DNA from: an uncultured Gammaproteobacteria bacterium
GTDB taxonomy: Bacteria > Patescibacteriota > Patescibacteriia > 2-12-FULL-57-11
Assembly: GCA_964648865.1 (NCBI GenBank)
Contig: CAZYLV010000006.1
Coordinates: 1-61,212 of the forward strand
Length of the DNA: 61,212 nt
Direction: 5' to 3'
Both the position numbers and the translations under genes were made by a program. Below are positions 4,531-59,499 of the stretch, piece by piece; within the stretch, counting starts at the first letter, position 1, and each line of letters begins with the position of its first letter. The notes under the pieces are model-generated. The model had not been told where the DNA came from and did not search any database. It saw only the letters and a program-made list of their open reading frames with translations.

Positions 4531-4932
4531 TCATTTCGAGAAGTACTGCCCGAGCACCGCGTCGCGCGTCATGAGCGCGACGTTCGCCTTGTAGCGCATC
4601 CAGAAGCGCGGATGATGCACCATCCAGACGAGCCGGAACCACTGGCGCACGCGCCGTGGCGGTTCCTGGTGATGGGCGAACTCATGGGCGATGACGCGCA
4701 GGATGGCGTCGGTGCGTCGGGGCTTCATGGTCCGCGGCGTGTACAGGTCCACGGTCATGCTCTTCTCGCCGGGCGTGGTGTAGCCGAGCCGCAGGTAGTG
4801 GAACGTGCCGCGGCCGCGCGAGCGGCGACGCAAGGGCTTCAATTCGAAGCCGGAAAAGCCGAACAACGCTTCGGCGCGGCGGAAGAGGTGTTCGACGAGC
4901 GCCTCGTGGCGCGGATCCAGGAGGTCGGCCAT
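4531..4932 (-). CDS. Small HExxH zinc-metallopeptidase-like protein (SprT/WLM/YgjP-like)
   Basis: IAHEFAHH plus downstream HHPRFW. Start at ATG 4932, 6 nt after TACAAT. Confidence 0.65.
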   Translation of the reverse strand: MADLLDPRHEALVEHLFRRAEALFGFSGFELKPLRRRSRGRGTFHYLRLGYTTPGEKSMTVDLYTPRTMKPRRTDAILRVIAHEFAHHQEPPRRVRQWFRLVWMVHHPRFWMRYKANVALMTRDAVLGQYFSK

Positions 4933-37604: not shown

Positions 37605-37676
37605 CGGCCTGTAGCTCAACGGCAGAGCGGTCGTCTTATACACGACTGGTTGGTGGTTCGAATCCACCCAGGCCGA
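37605..37676 (+). tRNA. tRNA-Ile (TAT anticodon)
   Basis: Acceptor CGGCCTG/CAGGCCG, anticodon arm GTCGT-ctTATac-ACGAC, T-arm GGTGG-TTCGAAT-CCACC and discriminator A. The 3' end is followed by CCG, so CCA is not encoded. Confidence 0.88.
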
Positions 37677-37695
37677 CCGATGTCGGGAACCTCCT

Positions 37696-55331: not shown

Positions 55332-55502
55332 GCGACGACGGGCGCGCGCCCTTCGGGGCCGCGGTCCGTCCGCGCTGCCGCAGCGGACGTCCGCTGCGCT
55401 CGGCCGACACGGTGGTCGGCCTGCGCGAGCCCCTCAGGCCGCGCGCCCGCCGTCAGTGGGGGTTGTCTGGAAGGGCGGGGCGTGGTACAACAGCGGACCT
55501 AC

Positions 55503-55589
55503 GGGCGAGTGGCGGAACTGGCAGACGCACTAGCTTCAGGAGCTAGCGGGCGCAAGCTCATGCGGGTTCGACTCCCGCCTCGCCCACCA
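55503..55589 (+). tRNA. tRNA-Leu (CAG)
   Basis: CTAGC-ttCAGga-GCTAG anticodon arm, long variable arm and encoded CCA; serves as the integration target. Confidence 0.96.
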
Positions 55590-57122
55590 AACAGGAAATG
55601 TCAAATTTTTCGGCGGCGGCGAACTGGCTGGCTCGTCCCGCCGCCCCTCGGGGCGAGCCAGAAATTCAGCGACAAAATCGTACGGCGACACAAAATCCCA
55701 GTCCGCACATTTGCCCGCAATGCGGCGGTTCGTTCCAATTTTTCTCACCAATTGCGAAATCTCCATGAGAGATTTCGCCGAGGCGATTTTTCCCGCTTGA
55801 ATCAAGGTATTTACGAAGTCCCGCGTTGGTTCGATCCAGCCGCTCATCCGCTTTTGTCCAAGAGTCATTTTCTCACCTTTCAGGGTGATTTTTTGTTCCA
55901 CCAGTTCTTCTTTTTTGCGCTTGTAGGTATCTTCGTCAATAAAGCCGTCAAGATAACCCTCAAGCAGTTTGTCCAGCTTTTCCTGCACCACAGTCATTTT
56001 CTGATTTACCTCTTGGACAAAAGCGTCCGCTGATTGGGCCTGCTTCTTTTCTTCATCTTCCAAATATACCAACATTTCGCTCGCCCAATCAGCGGGCAAA
56101 GCAATTGTTTGCGCTTTCTCTACCATCTGCCGCGCAAGCTCTTGTTCTTGGATGTAGGGTGCGGCGCAATGGCCTTGCTTTCTGGTACAGCGGTAGTATC
56201 TATACAGTCCGCCATTTCCTCGCGCAAACTGCGCCGTGAACATTGCGCCGCAAGTGCAGTGAAACAGTCCGCAAAAAGGAAAATCATGCTTTTGTCTGCT
56301 CTTGCGCGGTTTGCCTCGTTCTTTCAACACTTCCTGCGCCCGCGCAAATAATTGCTTTGAGATGAGCGGCTGGTATTTGCCTTCAAACGGCTCGTCTTTC
56401 CAGCGCATAATGCCGATGTAGAGTTCATTGGTGAGGATGTGATACATGGCAGAATTGGAACGCGGTTTCCCTGTTTCGCTTTTCACGCCAAACTCGGCGA
56501 GGCGATGGGCAATGCTGGTAAGCCCATGATTGCCAGTCGCAAACTCCTCAAAAACCTTCTGCACTGCTTTGGCTTCTTTTGGTTCTGGCACAATATTCCG
56601 CAGTCGGTGGTCATATACATAGCCCAGCGGTTTTTGTCCGGGCCATTCGCCTCGCCGCAGTTTGGCGCGATTCCCTCGCCGAACATTTTCGGACAGATTG
56701 TCCACGTAATATTTCGCGTTAGAGAGAGCAATGGATAAAAAGAACTTGCCTGATGGCGTATTCTCAAATGCGAAGGTAGGAAATTTTAGACCTGCCAATT
56801 TCCCAGTATCCAGTAGGTAAATGATCCTTCCGCCATCAACTGAATTTCTGGACAATCTGTCCGGGTTCCACGCCAGAATACCAATTTGATGAGGAAGACC
56901 GCCCTCAATTTTATCGAGCAGGGCGTTAAACACTTCTCGCCCTGGGACTTTGGCAGTTTGCTTTTCAATGAAGGTATCGATCACCTCAAGTCCCTCGCGT
57001 TCGGCAAACTCTTTTGCCTCATGCAGTTGCGCTTCCAAACTTAACACTTGGCGGTCTTCCTCATCCGTGCTTTTGCGGATGTAGAGAAAGTATTTTGTAG
57101 GTTGTGGTATTGGATTATTCAT
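55536..57122 (-). CDS. Large serine recombinase (resolvase, recombinase, zinc ribbon and coiled-coil domains)
   Basis: YIRKST.EED.Q..SL..Q, PDRLSRN, LSENVRRG...K..RGEW.G..PLGY, YIG, CTCG and YYRCT motifs. The ORF ends antisense inside tRNA-Leu. Confidence 0.95.
   Translation of the reverse strand: MNNPIPQPTKYFLYIRKSTDEEDRQVLSLEAQLHEAKEFAEREGLEVIDTFIEKQTAKVPGREVFNALLDKIEGGLPHQIGILAWNPDRLSRNSVDGGRIIYLLDTGKLAGLKFPTFAFENTPSGKFFLSIALSNAKYYVDNLSENVRRGNRAKLRRGEWPGQKPLGYVYDHRLRNIVPEPKEAKAVQKVFEEFATGNHGLTSIAHRLAEFGVKSETGKPRSNSAMYHILTNELYIGIMRWKDEPFEGKYQPLISKQLFARAQEVLKERGKPRKSRQKHDFPFCGLFHCTCGAMFTAQFARGNGGLYRYYRCTRKQGHCAAPYIQEQELARQMVEKAQTIALPADWASEMLVYLEDEEKKQAQSADAFVQEVNQKMTVVQEKLDKLLEGYLDGFIDEDTYKRKKEELVEQKITLKGEKMTLGQKRMSGWIEPTRDFVNTLIQAGKIASAKSLMEISQLVRKIGTNRRIAGKCADWDFVSPYDFVAEFLARPEGRRDEPASSPPPKNLTFPVWWARRESNPHELAPASS
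55584..55732 (+). repeat. Inverted repeat A, copy 1 (149 bp)
   Basis: Reverse complement of 57249-57397; identical by eye. Confidence 0.92.
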
Positions 57123-57248
57123 AAATTTTGGCGTGGAATAATGATTAATGTTCGGCGAGGGGGAAAAAATCGCCTCGATTCCGCCGAAGGCGGAATAATT
57201 GGTGAGAAAAATTGGAATGAGCTTTGCTCATCAATCGCTTCGCGATTG

Positions 57249-57397
57249 CGAACCGCCGCATTGCGGGCAAATGTGCGGACTGGGATTTTGTGTCGCCGTA
57301 CGATTTTGTCGCTGAATTTCTGGCTCGCCCCGAGGGGCGGCGGGACGAGCCAGCCAGTTCGCCGCCGCCGAAAAATTTGACATTTCCTGTTTGGTGG
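57249..57397 (-). repeat. Inverted repeat A, copy 2 (149 bp)
   Basis: Reverse complement of 55584-55732. Degenerate homology continues left to about 57160. Confidence 0.92.
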
Positions 57398-57405
57398 CCG
57401 ATAAT
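57377..57405 (+). promoter_or_regulatory. Junction promoter spanning the internal att-like core
   Basis: TTGACA (57377-57382, from arm A), 17 nt containing TGGTGG, then GATAAT (57400-57405, from arm B). Confidence 0.6.
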
Positions 57406-57604
57406 ACAATCAGCGCGAACCGAATTTGGAGAGCGGGCGAGCAAAATATGACTGCAAAAATTTTGTTAAAAATTTTTGCAACACACTCGCCGCGCGGATG
57501 CGGGGGCGGGCGGCGCATTCCCTCCCCTTGAACCCCTTCCTGCGCCGCCCGAAAAAATCCGCGCGGCGAGAGGAGTGTTTGCCCCGACGAATTGGGGCGG
57601 GCGC
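57392..57604 (+). repeat. Inverted repeat B, copy 1 (213 bp)
   Basis: Reverse complement of 59252-59464; overlaps repeat A copy 2 by TGGTGG. Confidence 0.92.
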
Positions 57605-57614
57605 GCCACCGATT

Positions 57615-57638
57615 GAACGATCCGAATCGTTCTTTTTT
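57615..57638 (+). terminator. Intrinsic terminator after arm B
   Basis: GAACGAT-ccga-ATCGTTC followed by TTTTTT. Confidence 0.65.
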
Positions 57639-57817
57639 GTTTTTCCCGCGCCTTGCCCCAGCCCGCCCGTGCGCGGCGCGGGTTTATGGAACTCCCTTTG
57701 ATTTTGGCGGGTTGCTATTGACATACGCTAGGAATTTTGCTTAAATAATGAGTCCAACCTGGGTTAGGTTTGGATGAGTTTTCGGCTCTTTACCAACTGA
57801 ACAAGAAGGAGGAAACG

Positions 57818-58306
57818 ATGACCCTGACAGCGAAAGACATTCACGATCAGCTCCACCAACTGCTCGGCTTCCAGCCGGGTGTCATCGTGGACTGCACGCG
57901 TGTCGGCAACCAGCCTGTGATGGACTTCGTCGGATCATCCAGGAGCACCTTCAACAACCCTGGTGCTTACATCATGCTCGCCGACAAACTGGCCGGTCTC
58001 ATGGTGCACCTCTCGGAAGTCGTTCCCAGCGAACAGAACAAGCTCGTCATGCTCTGCGATCTTTTCGCGGAAGGCAACGAGCCCCAGCCAGGCGTCGAGT
58101 GGTCGCACGAGAACCGCGTCAAAGGAGCGATCCTCGGCGTGATGTCGTGCCTGCTCATGCTCTTCCGGCACCCGGCACTTCAACTCGTCTTCGCCGCCCA
58201 GCCGGAAAGCCTCGTCATTGCCACCATCGAGAACGGCAAGATCGTGGTGCAGAAGAAGCAGGGCGAGAAGATGGTGAAGTTCCTGCAGGACAACGAGAAG
58301 AAATAA
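57818..58306 (+). CDS. Hypothetical cargo protein (162 aa)
   Basis: AAGGAGG SD before ATG 57818; TTGACA at 57718 upstream; first gene of the two-gene cargo operon. Confidence 0.75.
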   Translation: MTLTAKDIHDQLHQLLGFQPGVIVDCTRVGNQPVMDFVGSSRSTFNNPGAYIMLADKLAGLMVHLSEVVPSEQNKLVMLCDLFAEGNEPQPGVEWSHENRVKGAILGVMSCLLMLFRHPALQLVFAAQPESLVIATIENGKIVVQKKQGEKMVKFLQDNEKK

Positions 58307-58316
58307 GGAGGTCCAA

Positions 58317-59114
58317 ATGGGAAAAATCTGTGGCGCTCCCGGGTGCGCAAACCTGACGGCAAGCGCCGCAGGTAAGGCTCCTCGGAGAATCAACGGCGTT
58401 GAACTCTGTCGTGGTTGCTACCAGCGCATCTGGGAGCTCTCGAAGAAGATCAACAAGCCGATGGAACAGATCGTGCGTGAAGGTGCGCCGCTTCCCAAGC
58501 GTCCCTTGCCTCGTATCGAGACAACGTGTGCGAGAGAGGGGTGCGATGTGGAATTGCCGGAGAATGCCGGTCCGAACGTGCGTCGGACCATCGGCCTCCT
58601 GCACGTGTGCAATCCTTGCTACCAGTTGGCATGGGAGCACTCGGTGAAGAAGGGAGTTTCGATCGAGGAAGCATTCAGGGAGATGAAGCCGAAGCACTGG
58701 CGGCCCGATCCGCCGAAAACGGTTCGGTGTTGCCTGCCGTGGTGCAACGGTGAATTCGTCCCTGACGAGTCCTCCGAGGTGAGCGACGGCGTTCATGCAT
58801 GCGGTAAGTGCCGTTCCTACCTCAAGGTGCTCGGACAGCGTCCTCGCTACAAAGCCAGGGACTGGAAGGAACTCGCGAAGTATGCCATCAAGGGTATCGT
58901 CGCAGCTCCCAACACGCCGGAGATGTGCGCCATGTCCTGGTGCAGCAACGTAGAGCGCTCTTACCGTCGGGGTCCGAACGGTGAGGCCATCTGCAACTCG
59001 GATGGAATCTACCTCTACCAATACTCCAGGAGGCATGAAATCACATTTGAGGAGGCGTTTCGGACGGCTCCACCCCCGCGGCTTCTTCACACGCGTGGTA
59101 GGAACAAGGGATGA
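58317..59114 (+). CDS. Cargo protein with four tandem C-x4-C...C-x2-C/D zinc-finger-like repeats
   Basis: TAAGGAGGT SD and four Cys-pattern repeats (see findings). Confidence 0.8.
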   Translation: MGKICGAPGCANLTASAAGKAPRRINGVELCRGCYQRIWELSKKINKPMEQIVREGAPLPKRPLPRIETTCAREGCDVELPENAGPNVRRTIGLLHVCNPCYQLAWEHSVKKGVSIEEAFREMKPKHWRPDPPKTVRCCLPWCNGEFVPDESSEVSDGVHACGKCRSYLKVLGQRPRYKARDWKELAKYAIKGIVAAPNTPEMCAMSWCSNVERSYRRGPNGEAICNSDGIYLYQYSRRHEITFEEAFRTAPPPRLLHTRGRNKG

Positions 59115-59251
59115 TTCACTTCCACAAGCGAGAAGGAGGACAACATACGGCCGGTGGGAAATTCGAGAAATCGAAAAGTACCGCCGGCTCTTTCATTTTT
59201 CAAAGAACTGTGATACAATTTTTTTACTTTTCGACCTTTATTACACTTGGT

Positions 59252-59464
59252 GCGCCCGCCCCAATTCGTCGGGGCAAACACTCCTCTCGCCGCGCGGATT
59301 TTTTCGGGCGGCGCAGGAAGGGGTTCAAGGGGAGGGAATGCGCCGCCCGCCCCCGCATCCGCGCGGCGAGTGTGTTGCAAAAATTTTTAACAAAATTTTT
59401 GCAGTCATATTTTGCTCGCCCGCTCTCCAAATTCGGTTCGCGCTGATTGTATTATCGGCCACCA
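59252..59464 (-). repeat. Inverted repeat B, copy 2 (213 bp), ends in CCACCA (attR-like)
   Basis: Reverse complement of 57392-57604. Confidence 0.92.
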
Positions 59465-59470
59465 GAGGAT

Positions 59471-59499
59471 TTGACAGACGCCGCAAAATCTGGCATACT
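59471..59499 (+). promoter_or_regulatory. Host sigma70 promoter upstream of rnj
   Basis: TTGACA (59471-59476), 17 nt, TG-g-CATACT (59494-59499). Confidence 0.7.

Follow-up and report, generated by a model that had tools for sequence, protein, structure and literature searches.

A serine recombinase gene that runs through its own attachment site in an element family of Patescibacteria

Here, we describe an integrated element of ~3.9 kb, located at positions 55590-59464 of a 61,212-nt stretch of Patescibacteria DNA (GenBank contig CAZYLV010000006.1, positions 1 to 61,212; hereafter, the window), in which the open reading frame (ORF) of a large serine recombinase runs through the crossover point of the element's own attachment site. 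An earlier note on this DNA, made from the letters alone, had proposed that the crossover lies inside the recombinase ORF and that two types of junction give two alternative C-terminal tails; both the anatomy of the window and the loci of related elements bear this out. Intragenic crossover with tail replacement is a trait of a large element family that is found mostly in Patescibacteria. From sequence comparison, predicted structures, and analogy with known integrases, we consider it probable that the recombinase gene carries an intragenic attP, that a native helix is encoded across the crossover, that this tail is replaced on integration, and that the integrated enzyme is functionally different.

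In the mechanism that we propose, a large serine recombinase would insert the element at the CCA end of tRNA genes, and the recombinase ORF would continue past the crossover of attP for some 13-17 codons up to its natural stop. Behind the last ordered helix, the protein would have a flexible linker specified by the P' arm and then a short, conserved amphipathic helix (here, PIIQSARTEFGERASKI), the codons of which lie in the P arm on the other side of the crossover. When the element integrates through this attP, the ORF would be fused to antisense tRNA-Leu and the native helix thereby exchanged for 15 unrelated and disordered residues. Excision would rejoin the attR copy of the native tail to the gene, and flipping of the recombinase module would rejoin the copy at an internal inverted attP. 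Because the native tail appears to be under selection at the protein level, the integrated enzyme would be expected to differ functionally from the free-form enzyme.

The recombinase and its two C-terminal tails

The recombinase ORF (55536..57122, minus strand) encodes 528 aa, with the C-terminal end ...KNLTFPVWWARRESNPHELAPASS. Its domains, its invariant residues, and its fold all identify the enzyme as a large serine recombinase. Pfam searches place a Resolvase domain (PF00239; E 1.7e-18) at residues 12-160, a Recombinase domain (PF07508) at 181-269, and a Zn_ribbon_recom domain (PF13408) at 282-334; these serine recombinase domains were the only ones found in the protein, and nothing in the search pointed to tyrosine recombinase chemistry. 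A PHROG match assigns it to PHROG 95 (phrog_95), integrase. Y14, R16, S18, D88, R89, and R92 of the catalytic domain are invariant in comparisons with 32 and 49 homologues, as are C289, C291, C312, and C319 of the zinc ribbon among homologues. The predicted structure contains long helices at 344-391 and 397-424, and its Foldseek matches (9y66, 9dxh, 9iu2, 4kis, and 9tep; E 1e-13 to 1e-20) show a fold resembling those of the SPbeta, Bxb1, LI, and phiC31 integrases. A small serine DNA invertase of the Hin/Gin/Pin type, i.e., a protein of ~190 aa with a C-terminal helix-turn-helix, is ruled out by the length of 528 aa and by the large serine recombinase domains; the name "Pin-like invertase" on the database records of some relatives is an automatic label only. 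The database record for the recombinase gene itself (P0121, 503 aa) begins at an internal GTG (MLSLEAQ...) and loses the first 25 residues, including the catalytic Ser18 motif, yet it retains the tail read from the tRNA.

As the earlier note had stated, the ORF contains no stop before the core and runs on into the tRNA-Leu(CAG) gene. The frame continues for 54 nt antisense into the tRNA, stop included (two W codons and 15 further codons inside the tRNA), up to a TGA that reads as TCA on the tRNA strand (55536-55538) and overlaps the anticodon CAG (55537-55539). The element supplies residues 1-511, and the tRNA supplies WW + ARRESNPHELAPASS. The tRNA-antisense tail ARRESNPHELAPASS (55539..55583, minus strand) is predicted to be coil, with a predicted local distance difference test score (pLDDT) < 50, and in the AlphaFold2 (AF2) model of the window's form coil extends over residues 495-528. 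With the gene convergent on tRNA-Leu, its expression should drop, and RNA antisense to the tRNA would be expected to form.

The second tail is found at a second junction. The earlier note had described an attP-type junction across which the same frame continues differently; the junction is present, but it had been overlooked that it is part of a complete inverted attP that divides the island into two modules. The plus-strand frame indeed reads ...KNLTFPVWW followed by PIIQSARTEFGERASKI, with a stop at 57449-57451; however, what is joined there is an orphan 3' end and not the full gene. The ORF at 57224..57451 (plus strand) repeats ...RRIAGKCADWDFVSPYDFVAEFLARPEGRRDEPASSPPPKNLTFPVWW, continues as PIIQSARTEFGERASKI, and then stops, and the orphan is an inverted copy of the last ~175 nt of the gene. 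Because this junction carries only the orphan copy, the second isoform is a potential one in the window and would need excision or inversion to be made. The segment encoding the native tail, PIIQSARTEFGERASKI and its stop, spans 57398..57451 (plus strand) and holds CGAACC at 57416-57421. The native tail is stored twice in the island, at attR and at the internal inverted attP.

Conservation of the native tail and overlapping DNA signals

The recombinase has > 4000 database relatives. For a survey of the family, 80 loci were fetched from species-representative genomes, mostly metagenome-assembled genomes (MAGs) of Patescibacteria; their recombinases are mostly 40-50% identical to that of the window, with two closer ones at 79% and 86%. 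Together with the contigs of four database relatives and the window, these gave 56 comparable loci, i.e., loci with a convergent tRNA beside the gene. The earlier note had asked if the genes of homologues, too, reach their tRNA targets without a stop. They do, with the ORF entering the tRNA in 53/56 loci; of the remaining three, two have a stop ahead of the tRNA and one is cut off by the end of its contig. Over the 120 nt that precede the tRNA in the 56 loci, 4 stops fall in the recombinase frame in comparison to 53 and 79 in the other two frames, so the extension of the ORF into the tRNA is not due to chance. The target tRNAs include those for Ser, Glu, Gln, Leu, Pro, Val, Ala, Arg, Lys, Gly, and Asn, and the repeat joins the tRNA within its last 4-7 nt. 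The repeat pair flanking the recombinase recurs in most loci, and a second, abutting pair is present in 19 related loci and in the window.

Among the best matches, the C-termini share a conserved ..P(V/I)W(W/C), which is followed by one of two tail classes. Tails of the first class are antisense to a tRNA (..ESNP.., ..DSNL.., ..GSNQRP..) and correspond to the reverse complement of the T-loop; tails of the second class, e.g., PILVNARTNFERGDG and PLFENARTFFERN, resemble the second tail of the window. Even near-identical recombinases, i.e., members of 90%-identity clusters, differ in their tails (PVWWTVRESNP, PVWWAM, PVWWAVQDSNL, PIWCAGEDSNLHAFRH.., and PVWCPLFENARTFFERN). Across loci, the tRNA-derived tails are unconserved and vary from 2 to 57 codons (median 19), stopping inside the tRNA in 39 loci and past it in 14; such variation in length and end is as expected of unselected sequence.

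The attP-side tails, which we obtained by reading the orphan copy across the internal attP locus by locus, follow a common pattern. In 55 loci, they conform to the consensus h-h-x-x-[A/I/V]-R-T-[F/Y/H]-F-[E/Q]-x-[N/K], with a stop shortly after. Several lines of evidence support that this pattern reflects selection on the protein. First, in 46 distinct tail sequences, the information per codon position is 0.73, 0.99, and 0.49 bits, i.e., conservation peaks at position 2 and is lowest at position 3, while just upstream of the core the order is reversed (0.35, 0.52, and 0.59 bits). Second, the 12 codons around the tail Arg contain no in-frame stop, in comparison to 24 and 23 stops in the other frames. 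Third, the stop of the native tail falls in a narrow window, 7-13 codons past the Arg in 41/46 loci. In addition, the hydrophobic positions -5, -4, -1, +2, and +3 relative to the Arg are written with many different codons, and their spacing (i, i+1, i+4, i+7, i+8) fits one face of a helix. In the AF2 model of the attP-form homologue P0013, the last confident helix (477-492) is followed by a disordered linker (493-508) and a further helix (509-521). The earlier note had named a disordered and unconserved tail among the findings that would speak against its proposal. This description holds for the tRNA-side tail, which is unconserved and coil, and not for the attP-side tail, which has coding-type conservation and a predicted helix. 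We conclude from the sequences and the models that the attP-side tail is in all likelihood the native C-terminus, encoded beyond the crossover and replaced on integration through that attP. The native tails end in ..FERN, ..FEQNP, ..ERASKI, and similar sequences, and none is ssrA-like (..LAA type). We also considered that the orphan copy might be translated separately as a peptide supplying the tail in trans; this was not supported, as start codons are not consistently present and only 5/49 loci have a Shine-Dalgarno-like motif.

The tail overlaps signals that can be read in the DNA. The T-loop GGTTCG, which is CGAACC on the recombinase strand, lies at 55565..55570, 13 nt from the core, and the corresponding distance in the P arm is 18 nt. 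In related loci, the distance of CGAAC from the end of identity is 12-14 nt in the tRNA arm versus 17-19 nt in the P arm, and considering the left half-sites only, the shift between the arms is 4-6 bp in 32/35 loci. In a model of serine integrases, the motif bound by the zinc-ribbon domain lies 5 bp nearer the center in attB than in attP (PMC3783163). The CGAAC shift matches this model and thus supports the assignment of the arms as attB-type and attP-type. These positions suggest that the family reads the T-loop of the tRNA as the distal half-site, which would explain that near-identical enzymes are found at different tRNAs. For the right half-sites (P' versus B'), which were compared by eye and in the window only, we found no clear shared shifted motif.

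Anatomy and arrangements of the element

The element has a G+C content of about 45-60%, in comparison to ~70% for the host DNA, and contains three junctions: attL at 55589/55590 (tRNA to P'), the inverted attP at 57392-57401 (P' to P), and attR at 59464/59465 (P to host flank). Two inverted repeats define them. I2 (55580-55732 versus 57249-57401; 153 nt, 99%) is prolonged as I3 past a 28-nt indel, and I1 (57392-57608 versus 59248-59464) comprises 217 nt. I1 and I2 abut and share a 10-nt core, with the sequence TCGCCCACCA next to the tRNA and TCGGCCACCA at both other sites, giving an island of two modules in which the recombinase lies between P' arms and the cargo between P arms. At attL, the B arm is the intact tRNA-Leu(CAG) gene (55503..55589, plus strand), which according to ARAGORN is the only CAG isoacceptor of the genome; a UAG isoacceptor exists. 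The attL core TCGCCCACCA (55580..55589), where I1 and I2 overlap, differs by one mismatch from the TCGGCCACCA of the element, and from the sequence the crossover at attL must lie within CCACCA at 55584-55589. The P' arm (55590..55753; I2, I3) is the coding 3' end of the recombinase and the left arm of the repeat around the recombinase module. Its inverted orphan copy, P' arm b (57197..57391, plus strand), carries a 28-nt insert at 57221-57248, is 79% identical to recombinase residues 454-519, and contains one TGA; genome-wide, recombinase sequence was found only as the gene and this copy. The core of the internal inverted and complete attP, TGGTGGCCGA (57392..57401; overlap of I1 and I2), is followed by P arm copy b (57402..57608), the left arm of the cargo-bracketing repeat I1. 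P arm copy a (59248..59454), at attR, holds the second native-tail coding segment on the minus strand and borders the attR core TCGGCCACCA (59455..59464), after which the host B' flank begins with GAGGATTTGACA... Copies a and b are 99.5% identical, and a whole-genome search found the arms of the element nowhere else.

In most loci, as in the window, gene and tRNA are convergent. In L003, L023, L045, L056, L068, L079, and L086, the tRNA instead lies ~200 nt upstream and on the same strand as the gene, and L003 shows the full alternative layout, in which the orphan abuts the tRNA and the gene crosses the internal attP into the native tail. The closest relative, L087 (87% nt identity), has the upstream arrangement beside a tRNA 3' fragment. 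In that contig (L087:551-845, 2290-2302), ARAGORN did not call the tRNA 3' fragment, and the orphan copy has GAA where the gene has TAA.

The two arrangements could mean that the recombinase module (55590-57391) is an invertible ON/OFF switch that flips between attL and the internal inverted attP, either by the recombinase or by homologous recombination between the 150-nt repeats. One orientation would then have the native tail and be co-directional with the tRNA, and the other, that of the window, would be tail-less and convergent. Both orientations do occur among relatives, the closest one included. Moreover, the repeat arms within one element are mostly 95-100% identical, while elements differ greatly from one another, with members 40-50% identical, which points to ongoing exchange between the arms. 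Very many MAG contigs also end inside these repeats; however, such breaks are expected from any repeat exceeding the word size of the assembler. The two orientations were not seen in one population: the Logan contigs that we examined, at ~5-7x depth, break exactly at the repeat arms, and orientation is unreadable from them. Similarly, a search for the same insertion in both orientations gave no matched pair, the loci of cluster-3 members being in different host contexts, and an exact-pattern scan of metagenome contigs for the recombinase of the window element joined to the native tail gave 0 matches. Finally, classical serine integrases do not recombine attL with attP, according to PMC3783163 and PMC11722253. 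On balance, we regard an invertible switch as possible but doubtful.

Alternatively, the free form might be a small circle with two inverted attP-bearing repeats that integrates through either attP, such that the two arrangements are alternative integration products. Excision by attL x attR would give exactly such a circle, the internal attP is a complete site that hardly differs from the outer arms, and both arrangements exist. However, we found no circular contigs and, in short contigs with attP-type proteins, no terminal direct overlap (L003-L006, L088-L092, and L099-L101), relatives in viral contigs amount to only 7 weak matches, and the arrangements occur in a ratio of about 56 versus 8, an imbalance that equal use of both sites does not predict. 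We regard this layout, too, as possible but doubtful.

Several loci have layouts of their own. L061, a 4.9-kb contig, has a perfect 125-nt terminal inverted repeat (1-125, 4785-4909) of P-arm sequence, and its orphan copy is preceded by a GC hairpin with no tRNA, fitting neither arrangement. L004 contains two diverged recombinase genes in inverted orientation and L101 a third P-like arm, 91% identical, after the recombinase; these compound layouts suggest tandem or nested elements. In run X3, from a different study, window positions 55481-57262, which include the recombinase half of the island, were found on one contig with 6 differences over ~1.8 kb, three of them in tRNA-Leu (55549, 55550, and 55557); the upstream flank differs, placing the element in another strain or host in the same arrangement. 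Very many MAG contigs (loci L009-L084) have their first base within the internal attP repeats, 50-400 nt ahead of the start of the recombinase gene, and the element family systematically fragments short-read assemblies.

The cargo (57770..59114, plus strand) consists of two ORFs of 178 aa and 265 aa, for which no Pfam or PHROG match was obtained and among which no recombination directionality factor (RDF) was recognizable. A 35-nt direct repeat with 201-nt spacing (58415-58650), inside the 265-aa ORF, is consistent with an internally repeated Cys-rich protein. A hairpin with a T run lies at 57615-57632, just beyond the end of the repeat. Directly after attR is a host promoter-like site (TTGACA, 17 nt, TG-CATACT; 59471-59499, plus strand), which lies upstream of an RNase J-like gene; the element thus separates this site from the tRNA. 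Elsewhere in the window, at 37605-37678, is a tRNA-Ile with a UAU anticodon, and the genome also has a GAU isoacceptor.

Consequences of the tail replacement and related systems

By analogy with other integrases, the two tail isoforms are likely to differ in function, and the difference most likely lies in activity or directionality. For the SPbeta integrase SprA, PMC11722253 describes F532 and an extreme C-terminal element as important for directionality, and an essential helix of the SPbeta RDF as packing between DNA-binding domain 2 (DBD2) and the coiled-coil hinge. The site at which the RDF helix acts could also be that of a short amphipathic tail helix carried by a flexible linker.

In an extended version of this idea, the conserved C-terminal helix would be a built-in directionality or activity element that takes the place of a separate RDF, and the structure of the gene would record the state of the element. 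The free circle or the flipped module would then make the full-length enzyme for attP x tRNA integration. Integration would remove the helix and set the gene against a strongly transcribed tRNA, resulting in an enzyme that prefers other site pairs or is much less active. The orphan 3' end at the internal inverted attP would serve, together with that site, as a spare part that restores the full-length form without excision. This version is rather speculative, and we consider it somewhat unlikely.

Several observations weigh against a functional difference between the isoforms. Integrated genes with a tRNA tail far outnumber all others and have intact ORFs, and near-identical recombinases occur at different tRNAs; together, these findings imply that the tail-less form is no dead end for the family. 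In L087, the gene copy of the upstream arrangement has a premature TAA (after ..DFVA), before the linker. The tail helix of P0013 has pLDDT < 50 and is undocked in the monomer model. Also, the codon for the tail Arg is CGA in 44/55 loci, as part of the CGAAC that mimics the T-loop, and a sigma-70-like promoter (TTGACA, 17 nt, GATAAT; 57377-57405, plus strand) straddles the core of the internal attP. This promoter has 11/12 consensus matches, with the -35 element in the P' arm and the -10 element in the P arm, is directed into the P arm and the cargo, and lacks one half at attL and at attR.

Conservation of the tail is thus partly at the level of DNA, through CGAAC and the promoter, and a neutral reading keeps some weight. 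The swap would then be a by-product of a compact element, the constraints on the DNA of the P half-site, from a T-loop-like motif for the zinc-ribbon domain and from the -10 box of a promoter, would account for the conserved tail, and the isoforms would be alike. In addition to the Arg codon and the promoter match, the fixed position of CGAAC relative to the core in the P arm and its counterpart in the tRNA arm, a TATA-like sequence after the core in many P arms, the low confidence of the tail helix, and the free variation of tRNA tails in length and sequence without visible decay of the gene agree with neutrality. By contrast, DNA constraints do not readily explain a codon position 2 that is the most and a position 3 that is the least conserved in the tail, with the reverse just upstream of the core, hydrophobic positions written with many different codons, or a frame that remains open in AT-rich sequence and closes within a narrow window. 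We therefore consider a neutral swap unlikely and favor replacement of a native, functional tail. Finally, that the inverted repeats and the second junction are chimeric metagenome joins is extremely improbable, for although the window derives from a MAG and repeats of such length are hard to assemble, dozens of assemblies that were made independently, in different studies and with different assemblers, show the same layout, the repeat arms are separate contigs in independent runs with a depth of about 8.6-9.5 versus 2.9-7.3 for most neighbors, and the repeats meet exactly at the tRNA-end core.

The enzyme shares with the large serine integrases SPbeta SprA/YokA, Listeria A118/LI, Bxb1, and phiC31 the catalytic domain, the recombinase domain, and the zinc ribbon with a coiled-coil insert, and the element shares with them the conversion of attP x attB into attL + attR and a distal motif ~5 bp nearer the center in attB (PMC3783163). 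Unlike in these integrases, the crossover lies inside the recombinase's own ORF with a conserved C-terminal helix encoded across it, many different tRNAs are targeted at their CCA ends, where the T-loop would be the distal motif, and a second, inverted attP is kept while no RDF candidate was recognized in the two small cargo genes.

Integrase genes that contain attP are known from the myxophage Mx8 (IntP/IntX) and from SSV1, in which integration rewrites or splits the gene and alters the C-terminal part. As in the Mx8 type, the crossover lies inside the integrase ORF, and integrated and free forms of the element described here encode different C-termini; however, the Mx8 and SSV1 enzymes are tyrosine recombinases and are not known to have a spare inverted attP or a replacement tail read from a tRNA in antisense. 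In cluster G/N/P mycobacteriophages, attP lies inside the repressor gene, and integration removes a C-terminal ssrA-like degradation tag. Here, by contrast, the recombinase itself is affected, and its tail is without an ssrA-like tag. The layout also resembles the Gin/Cin/Hin segments and the shufflons, in which a segment lies between inverted sites and C-terminal ends are swapped by crossover within coding sequence; there, small serine invertases or the tyrosine recombinase Rci act on genes for tail fibers or pilins, whereas here the candidate for the switched gene is the recombinase itself and inversion is putative. In the yeast 2-micron plasmid, two inverted recombinase targets likewise split the element into two unique segments, but Flp is a tyrosine recombinase, the plasmid is not known to integrate, and no free circle was found here. 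In a literature search, neither this element family nor a serine integrase with an intragenic attP was found to be described. The family thus apparently is undescribed so far, and while an intragenic attP with a changed C-terminus is known for tyrosine integrases, we found no description of one for a serine integrase, which is what is new here.

Serine integrases are leading tools for the insertion of large DNA into genomes, and their one-way behavior normally needs a separate directionality protein. If our interpretation is correct, the form of the enzyme would be tied to the integration state by the structure of the gene, without an accessory protein, and reading of the T-loop, if true, would be of interest for retargeting. 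In Patescibacteria, these elements are common, break assemblies at their repeats, and cause recombinase genes to be mis-annotated.

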